Positions 27,757-33,087 of a stretch of DNA of 64,000 nt are shown here, in pieces. The position numbers were made by a program, and so were the translations under genes. This DNA is from an uncultured bacterium. Its GTDB lineage: Bacteria; Acidobacteriota; Thermoanaerobaculia; Multivoradales; JAHZIX01. The notes under the pieces are model-generated. The model had not been told where the DNA came from, made no database searches, and worked only from the letters and a program-made list of their open reading frames with translations. The stretch spans positions 85,999 to 149,998 of the forward strand of contig CBDUPA010000018.1 of assembly GCA_965368975.1 (NCBI GenBank), given 5' to 3'. Positions within the stretch are counted from its first letter, which is position 1. Every line of letters starts with the position of its first letter.

Positions 27757-29904
27757 TCAGCGCGGCGTGGCTCCCAGCTCGCGTAGCAACTGTTGTGCCA
27801 TCGCCGGATCGATGCGTCGAAGCAGCTCGATCTGAGCTTCCGCGGCCTGACGGTCGCCACTCTGCAGGTAACCGAGGGCTAGAAAGAAGTGCGGCTCGGG
27901 GCGTTGCGGTTCGAGACGTGTCGCCTCCTTGAGGTAGCGCAGGGCTCCCTGCAGATCGCCGCGATCAGCGAGGACAGTCGCCAGGTTGACGTGCGCCTCG
28001 ACGTGCCGTGAATCCAGCTCCAGGGCGCGACGGTAGCGCGCTTCGGCCTCTTCCAGCCGGCCGGCCTGCACCAGCACGTTGGCCAGGTTGGCGTGTGCGT
28101 TGGCGTAATTCGGGCGTAGCGCCAGCGCTGCCTCATAGGCCTCCAGGGCCTCGTCCAGCCGCCCCTGCGATGCCAGCGTATTGGCCAGGTTGTTGTGTGC
28201 TTCGGCGAGCCTGGAATCCGCGCGCAGGGCCGCCCGAAACTCAGTGACTGCCTCGTTCGGCCGTCCCTGGGCGGCGTAGAGATTCCCCAGATTCAGGTAC
28301 GCTTCAGCGAAGCCGGAATCGATCTCCAGGGTTCGCCGGAAGTGGTGCTCGGCACGGCTGGCCTCGCCGCGCCGGCTGAGGACCAAGCCGAGGTTGTTGT
28401 GTGCTTGCGTGTACAGGGGCCGCAGCTCCAGCGCCGTCTCCAAGTGCCCGATGGCTTCGCCATAGCGCCCCTGGTCGAGCAACTCGGCACCGAGGTTGTT
28501 GTGCATCAAGTAGTTGCCCTCGGTGACCGCGAGCGAGTGGGTGAAGATCGTCTCACTGTTGCGCCAGTGCATCGCTTGCCGGTGGGTCAGCCAGGCCAGC
28601 ACCACCGTCAGGACGAGCGCGGTCACCACGCCGGTCCACCGTAGCCATGAGGGCAGGCCCGGCTCCCTCGTGGCCGCATCCTCTCCGGCCTTGCCATCGA
28701 CGCGTGTCGCAGCCCAACGCGTCGGCAAATCCGCCAACCCCCAGGCTAGGGCTAGCGTCAAGCCGATGAAGGGAACATAGGTGTAGCGGTCGGCCATCGC
28801 CTGCGCACCGACCTGGACCAGGCCGATCACCGGCACCAACGTGCCGAGATACCAGAGCCACCCCACTATCAGGTACGGCCGCGACGTCCGCAGACGCAGC
28901 GCCAGCACCGTCACCGCCACCAGCAGCACCAGGGCTCCAGCAATCTGCCAGGCTGGTGGCATGCCGGGGTGCGGGTAGAAGAGGGACAGGTTCGACGGCC
29001 ACAGGAGCTTGCCCAGGTAGGCGACATAGGTGACGGCAGCATTGGCGATGCGCTCACCGAGGCCGACGCGGTCGACCGCCACGACCGCTCCGCCGGCCTG
29101 CTGCGCCAGCACCGTCACGATGCTGGACACCAGCGTCAAGGCGAACAAGGGCCCCTTCTCCAGCACCCGGGGCAAGAGCTCCTTGAACTCCGTCCAGCGC
29201 TCGATGCGCAGCCGTCCGAGTGGCCACACATCGAGCAACAGCAGCACGAAGGGCAGAGTCACCAGCATCGGCTTGGCTAGCAGGCCGAGCACAAAGCTGG
29301 TGACCAAGAACGCGTAGTGGCGCGCCCCGGGCTTTTCCGTCCAGCGCACGTAGGCGAGCAGCGTCACCATCCAAAACAGGGTGCTCAGCACGTCCTTGCG
29401 CTCGGCCACCCAGGCCACCGACTCGACATGCGTCGGGTGCAGCGCGAACAGCAATGCCACCAGCGTGCTGGGCCACCAAGCAGCCGTCAGCCGCAGCAAC
29501 AGCCACAGCAACACGAGCGCCGAGGCCAAGTGCAGGAGCACATTGGTCAGGTGGTGTCCGCTGGCGTCGAGGCCCCAGATCTCGATATCCAGCATGTGCG
29601 ACAGCCAGGTCAGTGGATGGTAGTTCGAAGCATGAAAACTGGAGAACGCCCAGGCCACACCATCAGCCGTCAAACCACGCTGCACGATGTCGTTCTGGCT
29701 TACGTAGACGGTGTCGTCGAAGGCGATGAAGTCGCCTTCCAGCGCCGGACGATAGGCCAGGAAGGTCACGGCCAGCAGGACCAGCGCGGTGAGCCAGAAA
29801 CGGCGACCGGCCCTGGAAGGCTGGTCCACCGAGGCGGTACCAGAGGTGGTGCGTGGTGTCTGGGTGCGGGAACCGGACTTCTTGGAGGACTTCTTCTTGG
29901 CCAT
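27757..29904 (-). CDS. TMTC-like GT-C glycosyltransferase with C-terminal TPR repeats
   Basis: FDD luminal motif, YHPLT, HPTHVESVAWVAERKDVL, MADRYTYVP, W.NSETIF, about 7 TPRs (AHNNLG/AHNNLA). Confidence 0.85.
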   Translation of the reverse strand: MAKKKSSKKSGSRTQTPRTTSGTASVDQPSRAGRRFWLTALVLLAVTFLAYRPALEGDFIAFDDTVYVSQNDIVQRGLTADGVAWAFSSFHASNYHPLTWLSHMLDIEIWGLDASGHHLTNVLLHLASALVLLWLLLRLTAAWWPSTLVALLFALHPTHVESVAWVAERKDVLSTLFWMVTLLAYVRWTEKPGARHYAFLVTSFVLGLLAKPMLVTLPFVLLLLDVWPLGRLRIERWTEFKELLPRVLEKGPLFALTLVSSIVTVLAQQAGGAVVAVDRVGLGERIANAAVTYVAYLGKLLWPSNLSLFYPHPGMPPAWQIAGALVLLVAVTVLALRLRTSRPYLIVGWLWYLGTLVPVIGLVQVGAQAMADRYTYVPFIGLTLALAWGLADLPTRWAATRVDGKAGEDAATREPGLPSWLRWTGVVTALVLTVVLAWLTHRQAMHWRNSETIFTHSLAVTEGNYLMHNNLGAELLDQGRYGEAIGHLETALELRPLYTQAHNNLGLVLSRRGEASRAEHHFRRTLEIDSGFAEAYLNLGNLYAAQGRPNEAVTEFRAALRADSRLAEAHNNLANTLASQGRLDEALEAYEAALALRPNYANAHANLANVLVQAGRLEEAEARYRRALELDSRHVEAHVNLATVLADRGDLQGALRYLKEATRLEPQRPEPHFFLALGYLQSGDRQAAEAQIELLRRIDPAMAQQLLRELGATPR

Positions 29905-30011
29905 GGGGCGCCATTGTATATCGACGTCCCGTAGATCGACGCCCTGGCCTTCCGGCCACGGCCGACGCTAGAATGACGCAACACATCAACATCTCATGGG
30001 GAGGAAACCTT

Positions 30012-30221
30012 ATGAAGAAACGGAATCGCAAGCTCGCCCTCCACTCCGAGACCTTGCACCACATGAGCGGCCAGCAGCTGCGCGACGCCCAAGGCGCCGT
30101 GGTGCAGATCGGCAACCCGCGGCCGATTTCGGATCCGAAGGTGAGCTGTCTGTGCATGACCACCCCGGAAACCGAGTGCCTATGCGGCGGCAATGAGACC
30201 GTAGTCATCGGAGTCGGCTGA
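30012..30221 (+). CDS. Putative RiPP precursor peptide A (69 aa)
   Basis: GGGGAGG RBS, then MKKRNRKLALHSETLHHMSGQQLRDAQGA-VVQIGNPRPISDPKVSCLCMTTPETECLCGGNETVVIGVG; the track shows this only as the tail of ORF 29853..30221. Confidence 0.75.
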   Translation: MKKRNRKLALHSETLHHMSGQQLRDAQGAVVQIGNPRPISDPKVSCLCMTTPETECLCGGNETVVIGVG

Positions 30222-30222
30222 C

Positions 30223-30810
30223 ATGCCGAGCCACGGTGCAGACCTGACCGCGACGGGCGACACTCTCGCCGACGCCCGGCGACAAGCCTCCTTGAGTGCC
30301 GGTCTCGGCTACCCTTGGCTGCTCGCCTTCGGCTTCACCGTTTCGGTCTGCGCCGTGGCCTCGTTCTTCGTCTCGACACGTCTCGCCGCCTTGATGTTCG
30401 TCTTCCAGGGCGGTGTCGCGTTACCACTCGCCTTCGGCCTGGAACGGGTCTTCGGACTACCGCGCATGGCGCCGGACAATCCGGTCAAACCCCTGATCAT
30501 CCAGGTGGCCAACATCCAGACGCCAGCGCTCCTGGCAGTGCTTTTCTTCTTCTCGCTCGGCCGCCCCGACCTGGTTCCCGCCGCCTTTGCCGCGGTGGCC
30601 GCTGGCCACTTCCTGCCCTACACCTGGCTGCACGAGACGAAGGTCTACATCGCCCTGACTGTAGCGGCTGCATGCCTGCCCTGGGCCCTTACCGTTTGGG
30701 GTGGTGACGGCGGCTACCGCCTGGGCATCGTCGCCCTGGCGATCGTCTACTTACTCACCGCCCTGGTGCTCTACTTCCAGTACCGGCAGCGCAGCCGGCA
30801 AGTCGACTGA
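30223..30810 (+). CDS. Integral membrane protein (about 6 TM, DUF7010-like)
   Basis: Hydrophobic throughout; DNPVKPL and GHFLPYTWLHET motifs; starts 1 nt after the peptide A stop. Confidence 0.7.
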   Translation: MPSHGADLTATGDTLADARRQASLSAGLGYPWLLAFGFTVSVCAVASFFVSTRLAALMFVFQGGVALPLAFGLERVFGLPRMAPDNPVKPLIIQVANIQTPALLAVLFFFSLGRPDLVPAAFAAVAAGHFLPYTWLHETKVYIALTVAAACLPWALTVWGGDGGYRLGIVALAIVYLLTALVLYFQYRQRSRQVD

Positions 30811-30829
30811 TCCAGTCACGAGGCCCATC

Positions 30830-31822
30830 ATGAAGATTCACTGCTCCCTTTGGCTGCACCGTCTCCTCCTCCTCGGACTCGTCGCCGGGATGCTCGGCAC
30901 CAACGCTTGCGGATCCGAGGCCCCAGAAGCCGAGTCTCCGGAGAGCACTGAGTCTCCGGAGAGCACCGAGTCGATACCCAGTACCGAACAACCACCCGAG
31001 ACAGCCCGCACCGAGACGGGCGCCCACCTGACCCAGGCCGCCGACGGACTGCCGATCGCTTTCGAAGACCGTGGCGAGGGCGACACCACTCTGGTCTTCG
31101 TTCACTGCTGGGCCTGCAGCCGCCACATCTGGGATGCTCAGATGGACGCCTTCGACGGCGACTACCGTGTCGTCGCCATCGACCTGGGGGGTCACGGGGA
31201 GTCCGGCCGCGACCGCGAGACCTGGACCCTCGACAGTCTGGCCGGCGACGTCGAGGCGGTGGTCGAGCACCTCGGCCTGGAACGCGTGATCTTGGTCGGC
31301 CACTCGATGGGCGGACCGGTGGCCCTGGCTTCGATTCCGCGCCTCGACGCCGAAGTCATCGGCCTGATCCCCGTCGATACCCTGCAGAATGTCGAATCGC
31401 AGTGGCCACCGGAAGCCGCGCGGCAACTGGTCGGTCAGTTCGAAGCCGACTACGAGGGCACGATGCGTCGGATGATGCCGGCCATGTTCCCCGCCTCCGC
31501 GGATCCCGAAATCGTCGAAGGCATCGTCCAGCAAGCCCTCGCCGCCGATCATGCTGCAGCCATGGCCCTGCTGCTGGACTTCCCACGGTTGGAGCTGCCA
31601 GCCATGATGCAAGCGGCCGGCGTCAGGGTCCGGGCGATCAACGCCGAACCGTATTCCGAAGCCAGCCTGGTGACGGCGGTCGAGGTGAACCAGAGGTACG
31701 CTGACTACGACGTCCGCATGATGGACGGTGTCGGGCACTTCCTGCAGGTGGAATCCCCCGACACCTTCAATGAGCGGCTACGCGAGACGCTGGCGGAGTT
31801 GACGTCGAGCCAAGAGCCCTGA
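30830..31822 (+). CDS. Alpha/beta-hydrolase lipoprotein
   Basis: Signal peptide with TNAC lipobox, ESPEST linker repeats, DLGGHGES, GHSMGG nucleophile elbow, GVGHF. Confidence 0.88.
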   Translation: MKIHCSLWLHRLLLLGLVAGMLGTNACGSEAPEAESPESTESPESTESIPSTEQPPETARTETGAHLTQAADGLPIAFEDRGEGDTTLVFVHCWACSRHIWDAQMDAFDGDYRVVAIDLGGHGESGRDRETWTLDSLAGDVEAVVEHLGLERVILVGHSMGGPVALASIPRLDAEVIGLIPVDTLQNVESQWPPEAARQLVGQFEADYEGTMRRMMPAMFPASADPEIVEGIVQQALAADHAAAMALLLDFPRLELPAMMQAAGVRVRAINAEPYSEASLVTAVEVNQRYADYDVRMMDGVGHFLQVESPDTFNERLRETLAELTSSQEP

Positions 31823-31885
31823 AGCCTTCTTCGCCAACAGTCAGGCGATTACTTCATCTCCAAGAACGAAACAGACGTCCTCCGC

Positions 31886-32041
31886 TCAGAATCCGATGTC
31901 GTCTTGGATAACGACACAGGTAACGCAAGTGTTACACCCAGACAGCGGGGTGCTCTCGTCACCACCACCTGCGTGGCGTAGAGCCTTGTCTTCTAGAAGG
32001 ACCAGTGTTTCCCGATGCAGCTTCAGTTTGCGAGCCTTCAT
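31886..32041 (-). CDS. Putative RiPP precursor peptide B (51 aa, below the ORF-track cutoff)
   Basis: AAAGGAG RBS; translated by hand as MKARKLKLHRETLVLLEDKALRHAGGG-DESTPLSGCNTCVTCVVIQDDIGF*; leader homologous to peptide A. Confidence 0.8.
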   Translation of the reverse strand: MKARKLKLHRETLVLLEDKALRHAGGGDESTPLSGCNTCVTCVVIQDDIGF

Positions 32042-32066
32042 CTCAACTCTCCTTTGACTTCCTAGC

Positions 32067-32108
32067 GACAGAATTATAACGCTTGCTCAAGAACAGCTCA
32101 ATTCTGTC
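32067..32108 (-). promoter_or_regulatory. Sigma70 promoter of peptide B enclosed by a 9-bp inverted repeat
   Basis: Minus strand TTGAGC (32101-32096), 17 nt, TATAAT (32078-32073); flanked by GACAGAATT (32067-32075) and AATTCTGTC (32100-32108). Confidence 0.7.
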
Positions 32109-33087
32109 ACATCAATAGTTTCAGCGCACCCGCCAGCACCTCGACCTCGACATCGCCCGCCAGCACGGCTTCGCCATCGACTTCGAGGGGTGGAAACGGG
32201 ATTCGTGGCTGCAACCGTACCCTAGTCGCCTTGGCGAAACGAACGCCGGGCACACCGAGGTGGGTCCCGAAGTAGAGGCGCGGCAAGTACAGCGGCAGTT
32301 TCCAGCGCGGGATCGCGGGCACCAGCACGACATCCATGAGGCCATCGTCCAGCTCGGCATCGGGAGCGATCTTCATGCCATTGCCGAAATAGCGACCGTT
32401 GGCCATGGCCAGCAGCAGCAGATCGCCGTCGTACCAAGGCTCGCCTGCTGCCGGGTCCAGGCCCGGCCCCTCGACGTCGACGCGGCACGGCAGCGGTCCA
32501 AAGCGCCACAGCGCACTCAACGTCGCCCGCAAGAAGACGTCCGGACCCCGGCGCGGTTGCGCGTTGACGGCACCGCAGACCAGGCCCGAGAGGCCGGCGG
32601 AAGCGGTGTTGACGGCGTGCTCGACGAGGGTGCTTCCTGTGCCATCCTGTGCGGTGATGCGCAGCAGGTCGACGGCCCGCGGCTGAGCGCGCATGACGTG
32701 AGCCAGGGCATCCAGCGGCCGCTTGGGCAATCCGAGAAACCGCGCCAGATCGCTGCCCGTGCCGGCAGGGATCAGCCCAAGCGCAATGTCCGTGGCACGG
32801 CCGCTGCGCAGCAGCTCGTTGACCACCAGGTGCAAGGTGCCATCGCCACCGACGGAAAGCACACGCTCGACTCTCGGTGTGCTCTCGGATGGGGTCAGCG
32901 CGGCGTCGAGGAGCTGGCGCGCTTCGGCTTCGTCCTTGGCGAAGATCACGTGTGCGGCTTTGAGCGCCGGCTGCGCCAGCTGCAGCTCATGCCACAGCTT
33001 GGCGGCCCGTCCGCCACCCGCGGCGGGATTGGCGAAGACGACCGTCGACCGGAAGTCAGAAGGCGAGTTCACGTCGACGCTACCCAA
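32107..33087 (-). CDS. Diacylglycerol/lipid kinase family protein (YegS/DgkB-like)
   Basis: NPAAGGG, VGGDGT, IPAGTGSDLAR, NGRYFGNG, DDGLMDV, EVDGE. Confidence 0.9.
   Translation of the reverse strand: MGSVDVNSPSDFRSTVVFANPAAGGGRAAKLWHELQLAQPALKAAHVIFAKDEAEARQLLDAALTPSESTPRVERVLSVGGDGTLHLVVNELLRSGRATDIALGLIPAGTGSDLARFLGLPKRPLDALAHVMRAQPRAVDLLRITAQDGTGSTLVEHAVNTASAGLSGLVCGAVNAQPRRGPDVFLRATLSALWRFGPLPCRVDVEGPGLDPAAGEPWYDGDLLLLAMANGRYFGNGMKIAPDAELDDGLMDVVLVPAIPRWKLPLYLPRLYFGTHLGVPGVRFAKATRVRLQPRIPFPPLEVDGEAVLAGDVEVEVLAGALKLLM

Follow-up and report, generated by a model that had tools for sequence, protein, structure and literature searches.

The DNA studied here, referred to as the window, is a stretch of 64 kb (C18:85999-149998, where C stands for contig) from the 7.13-Mb genome of an uncultured bacterium (genome label G000), and its positions 30012-32108 hold two genes for small peptides, A and B, that face each other across a membrane protein gene and a hydrolase gene. 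We propose that A and B are probably precursors that receive their modifications in trans and belong to a dispersed class I lanthipeptide library of about 55 genes. This proposition is built on direct observation of family membership, of coding status, of the enzyme inventory, of the co-occurrence of the leader with the dehydratase LanB and of the lack of a recurring partner gene beside the family peptides. Taken alone, A and B are unremarkable additions to a known leader family, and it is the layout across the genome that is of interest.

The leader family and its members

Peptide A, of 69 amino acids (aa), is encoded on the forward strand (30012..30221, with the ATG at 30012 and the stop codon at 30219-30221), and peptide B, of 51 aa, on the reverse strand (31886..32041, with the ATG at 32041 and the stop codon at 31886-31888). 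Reading of the sequence places a Shine-Dalgarno (SD) sequence 7 nucleotides (nt) 5' of the ATG of A (GGAGG, 30000..30004, forward strand) and another 8 nt 5' of that of B (AGGAG, 32049..32053, reverse strand). Upstream of B lies a sigma-70-like promoter (TTGAGC-17 nt-TATAAT, 32073..32101, reverse strand, 10 of 12 positions), which is the sole match of this type in 29850-32250, a region for which shuffled sequences lead one to expect 0.2. The layout of the two genes, their sizes, their strong ribosome-binding sites, the 1-nt gap behind A and the separate promoter of B, all described in a first-pass annotation of this DNA, are borne out by the reading of the sequence and by the promoter scan. 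The leader of A corresponds to residues 1-29 and ends in QGA, followed by a core of 40 aa with 4 Cys and 6 Ser/Thr, while that of B corresponds to residues 1-27 and ends in AGGG, followed by a core of 24 aa with 3 Cys and 5 Ser/Thr. Both cores have what is expected of a LanA peptide behind a GG-type site, namely Cys together with at least as many Ser/Thr residues, after QGA in A and after GGG in B.

The class I lanthipeptide leader model NF038153 (lant_leader_L1a), searched over the whole genome, matched 45 places at E<=10, 16 of them above its cut-off; none of 14 control genomes gave a match above the cut-off. These places have a common pattern, consisting of MKK, a basic stretch, KLxLxRETL, about 10 variable residues, GG, GA or AG, and a tail rich in Cys, Ser and Thr. 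The most conserved part of the leader is the N-terminal KLxLxRETL, and not the GG-proximal part alone. A leader profile of the genome's own, made from 20 NF038153 places (9 over the cut-off and 11 just below it) from which A and B were left out, was applied to 133,041 stop-to-stop frames of at least 25 aa, and it retrieved 55 frames at E<=0.11, the following frame being at E 2.7. Peptide A scored 30.8 bits (E 1.3e-6) and peptide B 33.2 bits (E 2.5e-7), and the best of the reversed frames used as a control reached E 0.58. The resemblance between the two leaders, counted again from the sequence as 12 identical residues in an ungapped stretch of 24, is as first reported and lies, by these scores, far beyond chance. 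On the same scores A and B are judged to be homologous to the paralogs that match NF038153. They are real members of the family, whose leader type and chemistry are already known, and the initial assignment of both as precursors of peptides that are made on ribosomes and modified after translation (RiPPs) with a class I leader of the form LxLx(K/R)x5L holds, B being a sub-threshold match to NF038153 and both peptides matching the genome's own profile.

The 55 family genes are spread over 20 contigs and 37 loci, comprising 24 singletons, 9 pairs, 3 triples and 1 quadruple, with A and B forming one of the pairs. The genome displays the features by which a combinatorial library of the prochlorosin type is recognised as regards its precursors: many precursors, one leader, diverse cores and a position mostly remote from the synthetase. 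Among the 54 members for which a start codon was assigned, 53 begin with ATG and 1 with GTG, and all 54 have an SD core at -4..-18, which is the case for 189 of 1369 random genomic ATGs (13.8%). The 130 bases upstream of the family genes have a mean GC content of 55%, against 65% for the genome, and inspection of the 54 upstream regions by eye, no motif finder having been run, revealed no conserved motif beyond the SD. The median length of the 54 cores is 28 aa, with 11.8% Cys, 11.4% Thr and 8.4% Ser, and in 52 of them Cys is present and does not outnumber Ser and Thr together. The frame at C3:373052-373207, one of the 55, has no ATG, GTG or TTG ahead of its leader motif and may be a decayed copy or have another start.

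Peptides of the same family are found in databases. The protein database holds an ortholog of A (P0010, 69 aa, 77% identity), in which 22 consecutive core residues, RPISDPKVSCLCMTTPETECLC, are unchanged and the second half of the leader drifts. The protein P0041, from a metagenome-assembled genome (MAG) of Thermoanaerobaculia, has 23 of 45 residues in common with B, including the core motif C-x2-C-x-T-C-V-V-I. A further database relative of the family, P0028, bears the NCBI name 'class I lanthipeptide', and some of the database relatives are annotated with Pfam PF28317.

Contigs from three sludge-metagenome runs of one study offer a closer comparison, in the form of a relative that is syntenic with the window and about 92% identical to it. 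Its copy of the open reading frame (ORF) of A differs by 19 changes, 15 of which fall at third codon positions (P 6e-5 for at least 15 of 19), and amounts to 14 synonymous and 4 non-synonymous codon changes (H17R, V30A, G60R, I66V), with all Cys, Ser and Thr residues of the core unchanged. As judged from these substitutions, A is under purifying selection in the relative. A stretch of 302 nt (31823..32124, no strand assigned) that contains the whole B gene and its promoter is replaced by 20 nt in this related strain or species, the joint from 31822 to 32125 being present on one contig per run in all three runs. This exchange suggests that B comes and goes independently. The repeats that flank the B cassette are matches of only 10-14 nt, which could be due to chance, and they point to no mobility mechanism.

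It could be argued that the ORFs of A and B are decaying or silent relics of a lanthipeptide system that was once clustered, and that they give no product. They lie far from any enzyme, the consensus is not kept in the leader of A (S replaces R before ETL, and M replaces L), and B is absent in the close relative. We find this hardly credible, as both ORFs have an ATG, a strong SD and an intact frame, B has a near-consensus promoter, and the 14 synonymous against 4 non-synonymous codon changes in A are accompanied by the conservation of its core in a second, more distant ortholog (P0010) and by the recurrence of the B core motif in another MAG.

The modification enzymes and the leader

A Lant_dehydr_N search of the genome revealed one strong full-length LanB, a protein of 1158 aa on contig C13 with matches to both the N domain (E 2.4e-167) and the C domain (E 7.5e-66). 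Two family precursors and two LanC genes come immediately after it, and housekeeping genes border the block. Two more LanC genes, at C1:561598 and C13:186394, each lie just downstream of a family precursor and have no dehydratase among their neighbours. The C1 copy is intact and is located 70 nt past its family precursor, and contig C1 has no Lant_dehydr_N match; the presence of an intact cyclase with its own precursor and no dehydratase implies that LanB acts in trans in this genome. Three LanC, the C1 copy and both copies of the C13 cluster, have kept GxAHG, WCxG and CHG, which we take to be the active-site and zinc motifs of NisC. A cognate full-length LanB and intact LanC, as expected for LanA peptides, are thus present in the genome. 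A search for further leader members and for RiPP enzymes, which the first-pass annotation had put forward as a check that might refute its proposal, had the opposite outcome, both being present.

Most family genes are remote from these enzymes. Only four of the 55 precursors have a LanB or a LanC within 2 kb; for one more, the distance to a LanC is 17 kb. Three ATP-binding cassette (ABC) transporters with a C39 peptidase are encoded on C8 and C13, and none on C18. The C39 transporters, LanM, the SPASM genes and YcaO were found beside no family member. In the 64-kb window, no match to LanB, LanC, LanM, C39 peptidase, SPASM radical SAM or YcaO was obtained, in agreement with the initial description of the window as devoid of RiPP enzymes, and the gene with a LanC domain that is nearest to A is the LanM gene C18:1247-3760, at about 112 kb. 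This LanM is a class II enzyme of 1191 aa with DUF4135 and LanC domains, encoded about 83 kb before the start of the window. Weaker LanB-like ORFs occur on C12 and C9; those of C9:118735-128334 are open frames of 878, 944 and 1698 aa with weak Lant_dehydr_N matches and no family precursor nearby, and this block may belong to a different RiPP or peptide-aminoacyl pathway.

We infer the dehydration, cyclisation, cleavage and export of A and B from established class I chemistry. Each of the 55 or so scattered genes encodes a precursor in which a conserved leader, some 27-32 residues long (MKK..KLxLxRETL....GG/GA), precedes a core that is highly variable and abounds in Cys, Ser and Thr. The KLxLxRETL segment would dock on the N-terminal leader-binding region of the C13 LanB, which would dehydrate Ser and Thr of the core by means of glutamyl-tRNA. 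The LanC cyclases, two beside LanB and one more intact copy on C1, would then add the Cys thiols and form thioether rings. One of the three C39-peptidase ABC exporters would cut after GG or GA and export the product. It can be hypothesised that A rides on the transcript of the membrane protein and hydrolase genes, and that B is expressed from its own promoter. The earlier suggestion of a dispersed library modified in trans is supported by the 55 members, by LanB and LanC located on another contig and by the co-occurrence of the leader and LanB, the modification itself being deduced.

This co-occurrence was assessed in a set of 41 genomes, comprising this genome, 5 from its own family and 35 from its order. 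At E<=0.01 the leader model matched in 8 of the 41, none of them among the same-family genomes, with 17 matches in G030, 11 in G011, 7 in G007 and 6 in G039. A Lant_dehydr_N match at E<=1e-105 is present in all 8 leader-positive genomes and in 1 of the 33 leader-negative ones (G009), a pattern rather than a statistic, the genomes being related and non-independent and the line at 1e-105 having been picked after the table was seen. Among the leader-negative genomes, 8 have a weaker Lant_dehydr_N match and 24 have none, which brings those with a match of any strength to 9 of 33. LanM was found in 4 of the 8 leader-positive genomes and in 9 of the 33 leader-negative ones.

Twelve LanB loci, five from named records and seven from the relatives, were scanned with the genome's own profile, and family precursors stand beside LanB in 7 of them, including a Pedobacter chromosome, a Saprospiraceae MAG and an Acidobacteria MAG. 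The other 5 loci, G011 and G039 among them, have no family precursor at E<=1, and none of the 11 leader matches of G011 or the 6 of G039 is on the LanB contig. The position of the leader beside LanB in 7 of 12 loci, together with its scattering in G011 and G039, identifies the leader family, as far as gene position and similarity can tell, as the cognate substrate type of this LanB clade, and shows the scattered layout to recur in another family of the order. The closest relatives of the C13 LanB are 44-55% identical to it, and the titles of their records name Acidobacteriota and Thermoanaerobaculia, as is the case for the database peptides. Of 300 further genomes sampled from the phylum, 11 gave leader matches at E<=0.001, none of them more than 6, against at least 13 in this genome by the same measure, a lower bound for which 25 of 52 first-look candidates were scored. 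One of the 11 leader-positive genomes, G189, is unpublished.

The association was also modelled with LanB residues 1-800 (alignment of 12 rows) and B (aligned with 15 family members). The model of LanB with B scored 0.64, against 0.05 for the best of three controls, although this may reflect likeness to solved complexes of LanB with leaders; the score mark is reached by 58 of 80 solved complexes and by 2 of 110 mismatched pairs, and it is also passed by close cousins of a true partner. Contact agreement between runs was at least 38%, and the predicted local distance difference test (pLDDT) score of the partner at least 41. The confident contacts involve residues 4-6 and 8-18 of B (the KLKLHRETLVLLED stretch, with the conserved motif) and residues 243-313 of LanB. 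The B leader is thus predicted to be compatible with LanB, which fits recognition by the N-terminal domain and is not proof of binding.

An alternative reading would make A and B bacteriocin-like or signalling peptides with a double-glycine leader, cut and exported by a C39 ABC exporter and either unmodified or disulfide-bonded. Both leaders finish in GG or GA, the genome has genes for three C39-peptidase transporters, no modification enzyme is near, and the 4 Cys of A could pair. Such peptides share with A and B the GG/GA end of the leader, the small size and the presence in the genome of genes for peptidase-containing ABC transporters (PCATs). We consider this rather unlikely. A and B match no double-glycine bacteriocin model at E<=10 in NCBIfam and Pfam, and neither an adjacent PCAT nor an immunity gene accompanies them, a PCAT being found beside no family member. 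The conservation of their leaders peaks at the additional N-terminal KLxLxRETL motif, which the model places on LanB, and the leader is confined to genomes with a strong LanB (8 of 8). The Cys counts of the 54 cores, 28 even and 26 odd, show no even excess and give no pointer to obligatory disulfide pairing, so that the disulfide-bonded alternative offered at first gains nothing from them; B itself has 3 Cys.

Modification in trans could also be the work of another enzyme, such as the LanM of C18 (C18:1247-3760), the LanB-like paralogs of C9 and C12 or a SPASM radical SAM enzyme. The 1191-aa LanM is encoded on the same contig as A and B, several LanB-like ORFs and six SPASM genes occur in the genome, and dispersed libraries are known for LanM in the case of the prochlorosins, according to the accessible part of Walker et al. 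(2020; BMC Genomics 21:387). We hold this to be quite improbable, as 4 of the 8 leader-positive genomes lack LanM, G011 (11 leader matches) and G039 (6) being two of them, and LanM does occur in 9 of the 33 leader-negative ones. The leader stands directly beside a full-length LanB in 7 of 12 loci, and no SPASM or YcaO gene adjoins a family member, the nearest being the YcaO gene about 7 kb from C27:37553.

Apart from the caveats already attached to the genome comparison, to the lower bound in the phylum sample and to the docking score, several observations weigh against modification of A and B by the C13 LanB within a class I library. Against NF038153, whose curated cut-off is 22 bits, B reaches only 13.3 bits (E 0.069) and A gives nothing at E<=10. 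The LanA genes and their enzymes would be expected in the same cluster, and contig C18 has no LanB match and the window no modifying enzyme. The LanM encoded about 112 kb upstream of A on the same contig is a possible alternative modifier, as are the LanB-like paralogs (C9, C12), the six SPASM radical SAM genes and the one YcaO gene. The LanC at C13:186394-187704, which adjoins the closest paralog of B, lacks the Zn-ligand motifs. Lastly, no RNA sequencing runs were found for this DNA.

The precursor just before this LanC is the family member most similar to B (47% identity). The LanC at C13:186394-187704 has kept GxAHG, and it is missing the Cys and Cys-His zinc ligands that are present in the other three copies. 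From these residues, its product may be an inactive cyclase or a leader-binding protein.

Known systems and the library layout

According to the accessible part of Walker et al. (2020), the class I LanAs of Bacteroidetes have an LxLxKx5L leader, often with a GG end, and a C39 protease in the cluster. The family described here resembles these LxLxKx5L/GG class I LanAs (NF038153) in its leader motif, in the GG-type end of the leader, in the core rich in Cys, Ser and Thr, and in the presence of a full-length LanB and LanC in the genome. The LanB loci of relatives, in which the same leader adjoins the enzyme, and the C39 protease as the expected remover of the leader extend the likeness. The differences are that A and B fall below the curated cut-off and are on another contig than LanB and LanC, that about 55 copies exist here, mostly remote from the enzymes, and that the host is probably a member of the Acidobacteriota and not of the Bacteroidota.

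In marine cyanobacteria, libraries of the prochlorosin type (ProcM with ProcA, SyncM with SyncA) consist of one synthetase and dozens of precursors with a conserved leader and hypervariable cores. The present family shares with them the dozens of precursors, the conserved leader, the hypervariable cores and the location of many precursors far from the enzyme. It differs in that the cyanobacterial libraries are class II, with a single LanM and leaders of the Nif11 or NHLP type, whereas the leader type here is that of NF038153 and tracks LanB (8 of 8 genomes) and not LanM (4 of 8). Libraries of the ProcM/SyncM type are mentioned in the accessible parts of Walker et al. (2020) and of PMC9872173. 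It can be hypothesised that one dehydratase and three intact cyclases serve about 55 hypervariable precursors in a class I counterpart of the prochlorosin system, in which precursors would be gained or lost one at a time, each in a cassette of some 300 bp that has its own promoter, like that of B, and which would be a lineage trait of these Acidobacteriota; we regard the arguments for and against this extended proposition as evenly poised. The scattered layout is also seen in G011, G039 and G030, which belong to another family of the same order, and this favours a lineage trait over an oddity of one genome.

Tools for genome mining seek lanthipeptide precursors no more than a few genes away from the enzyme. 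Walker et al. (2020) went no further than seven genes around the LanC domain and, by their own account, missed remote prochlorosin precursors for this reason. The same limit would miss about 50 of the 55 precursors found here, A and B included. We found no description in the literature of a dispersed class I library, with dozens of precursors away from the enzymes, in a search that lay outside subscription journals and supplements, so that a prior description may exist. If a single set of LanB and LanC does act on many unrelated cores, it would constitute a naturally substrate-tolerant class I system, useful for peptide engineering. Library-style RiPP production would, if this is true, have evolved outside cyanobacteria and outside class II.

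The membrane protein, the hydrolase and other neighbours

Between A and B, two genes are read on the forward strand. The first (30223..30810) encodes a multi-pass membrane protein of 195 aa that covers profile positions 2-171 of 172 in its match to the Pfam family DUF7010 (PF22765), at 95 bits (E 6.3e-27) where the gathering cut-off is 27 bits. The second (30830..31822) encodes an alpha/beta hydrolase of 330 aa counted from the ATG at 30830, with matches to Abhydrolase_6 and Abhydrolase_1 of Pfam (E about 3e-21). These had been described as a protein with six transmembrane segments and an alpha/beta-hydrolase lipoprotein. The hydrolase assignment is confirmed (E 3e-21), a crude hydropathy scan yields about five to six hydrophobic segments in the DUF7010 protein, and a lipoprotein signal is plausible, though it is a weak one whose sole supporting match is NCBIfam PG1828_fam_lipo at E 0.011. 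The hydrolase has a signal-like N-terminal segment followed by a linker rich in ESPEST. At window 30890-30990 this linker contains repeated ESPESTESPESTES behind the signal-like N-terminus, within the stretch that differs in the related strain.

The start of DUF7010 at 30223 lies 1 base past the stop codon of A, with GGAG 10 nt before it, an arrangement that suggests co-transcription and perhaps coupled translation; A and DUF7010 are probably on a common transcript in this genome. The enclosed genes were initially thought to supply immunity, sensing or processing, and A, DUF7010, the hydrolase and B would then form a local module. The 1-nt gap with its GGAG and the position of B, which faces the operon from its own promoter, speak for such a module. 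We judge it very unlikely in view of the distribution of its parts. DUF7010 was not found by protein query in the 40 relatives, and the Pfam model detected it in 18 of the 300 further genomes from the phylum. At these 18 loci neither a family peptide (E<=10) nor a relative of the hydrolase stands beside it, over flanks of about 1.5 kb, some of them shorter, so that the synteny of the membrane protein and the hydrolase with such peptides, named earlier as something to look for in related genomes, did not appear. This genome has one DUF7010 copy for 55 peptides.

The 92% relative also separates the parts. In place of a segment of 574 nt (window 30377-30952), which takes in the bulk of DUF7010 and the initial 122 nt of the hydrolase gene, it has 201 nt, and the hydrolase is retained from 30952 on. 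The residual 5' part of DUF7010 carries 13 changes, 5 of them at third positions (7 non-synonymous and 4 synonymous codons), without the third-position excess seen in A. As A is kept while DUF7010 is mostly replaced and B is absent, A appears to be maintained without an intact DUF7010. Among 246 called genes within 4 kb of the 55 peptides, there is no dominant partner family, and the largest similarity groups have 4 members (LanC; ABC ATPases; Ser/Thr kinases with TPR; precursors). This result is coarse, the crude gene caller used (4462 genes) missing many small genes and over-extending starts. The idea of a functional unit formed by the enclosed genes is not sustained, and a functional tie of DUF7010 and the hydrolase to the peptides is not supported; they look like neighbours by position only.

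Several gene types occur 2-4 times each within 4 kb of family peptides, namely Ser/Thr kinases with TPR, ABC ATPases, MacB/FtsX permeases, S9 prolyl oligopeptidases and M12-like/PKD proteins. Examples are found at C11:206110-208683, C12:166804-169119 and C5:73302-75650, the counts being given without comparison to the genome-wide frequency. Divergent from A and upstream of it, the window encodes at 27757-29904 (reverse strand) a protein of 715 aa whose N-terminal part is of the multi-pass membrane type and whose C-terminal part has TPR-like repeats. Elsewhere in the genome, C13:97342-122692 contains two of the C39-peptidase ABC transporters, two SPASM radical SAM genes and a small ORF (C13:106802-106846) with a different, acidic GG leader, and it is probably a separate radical-SAM RiPP cluster.

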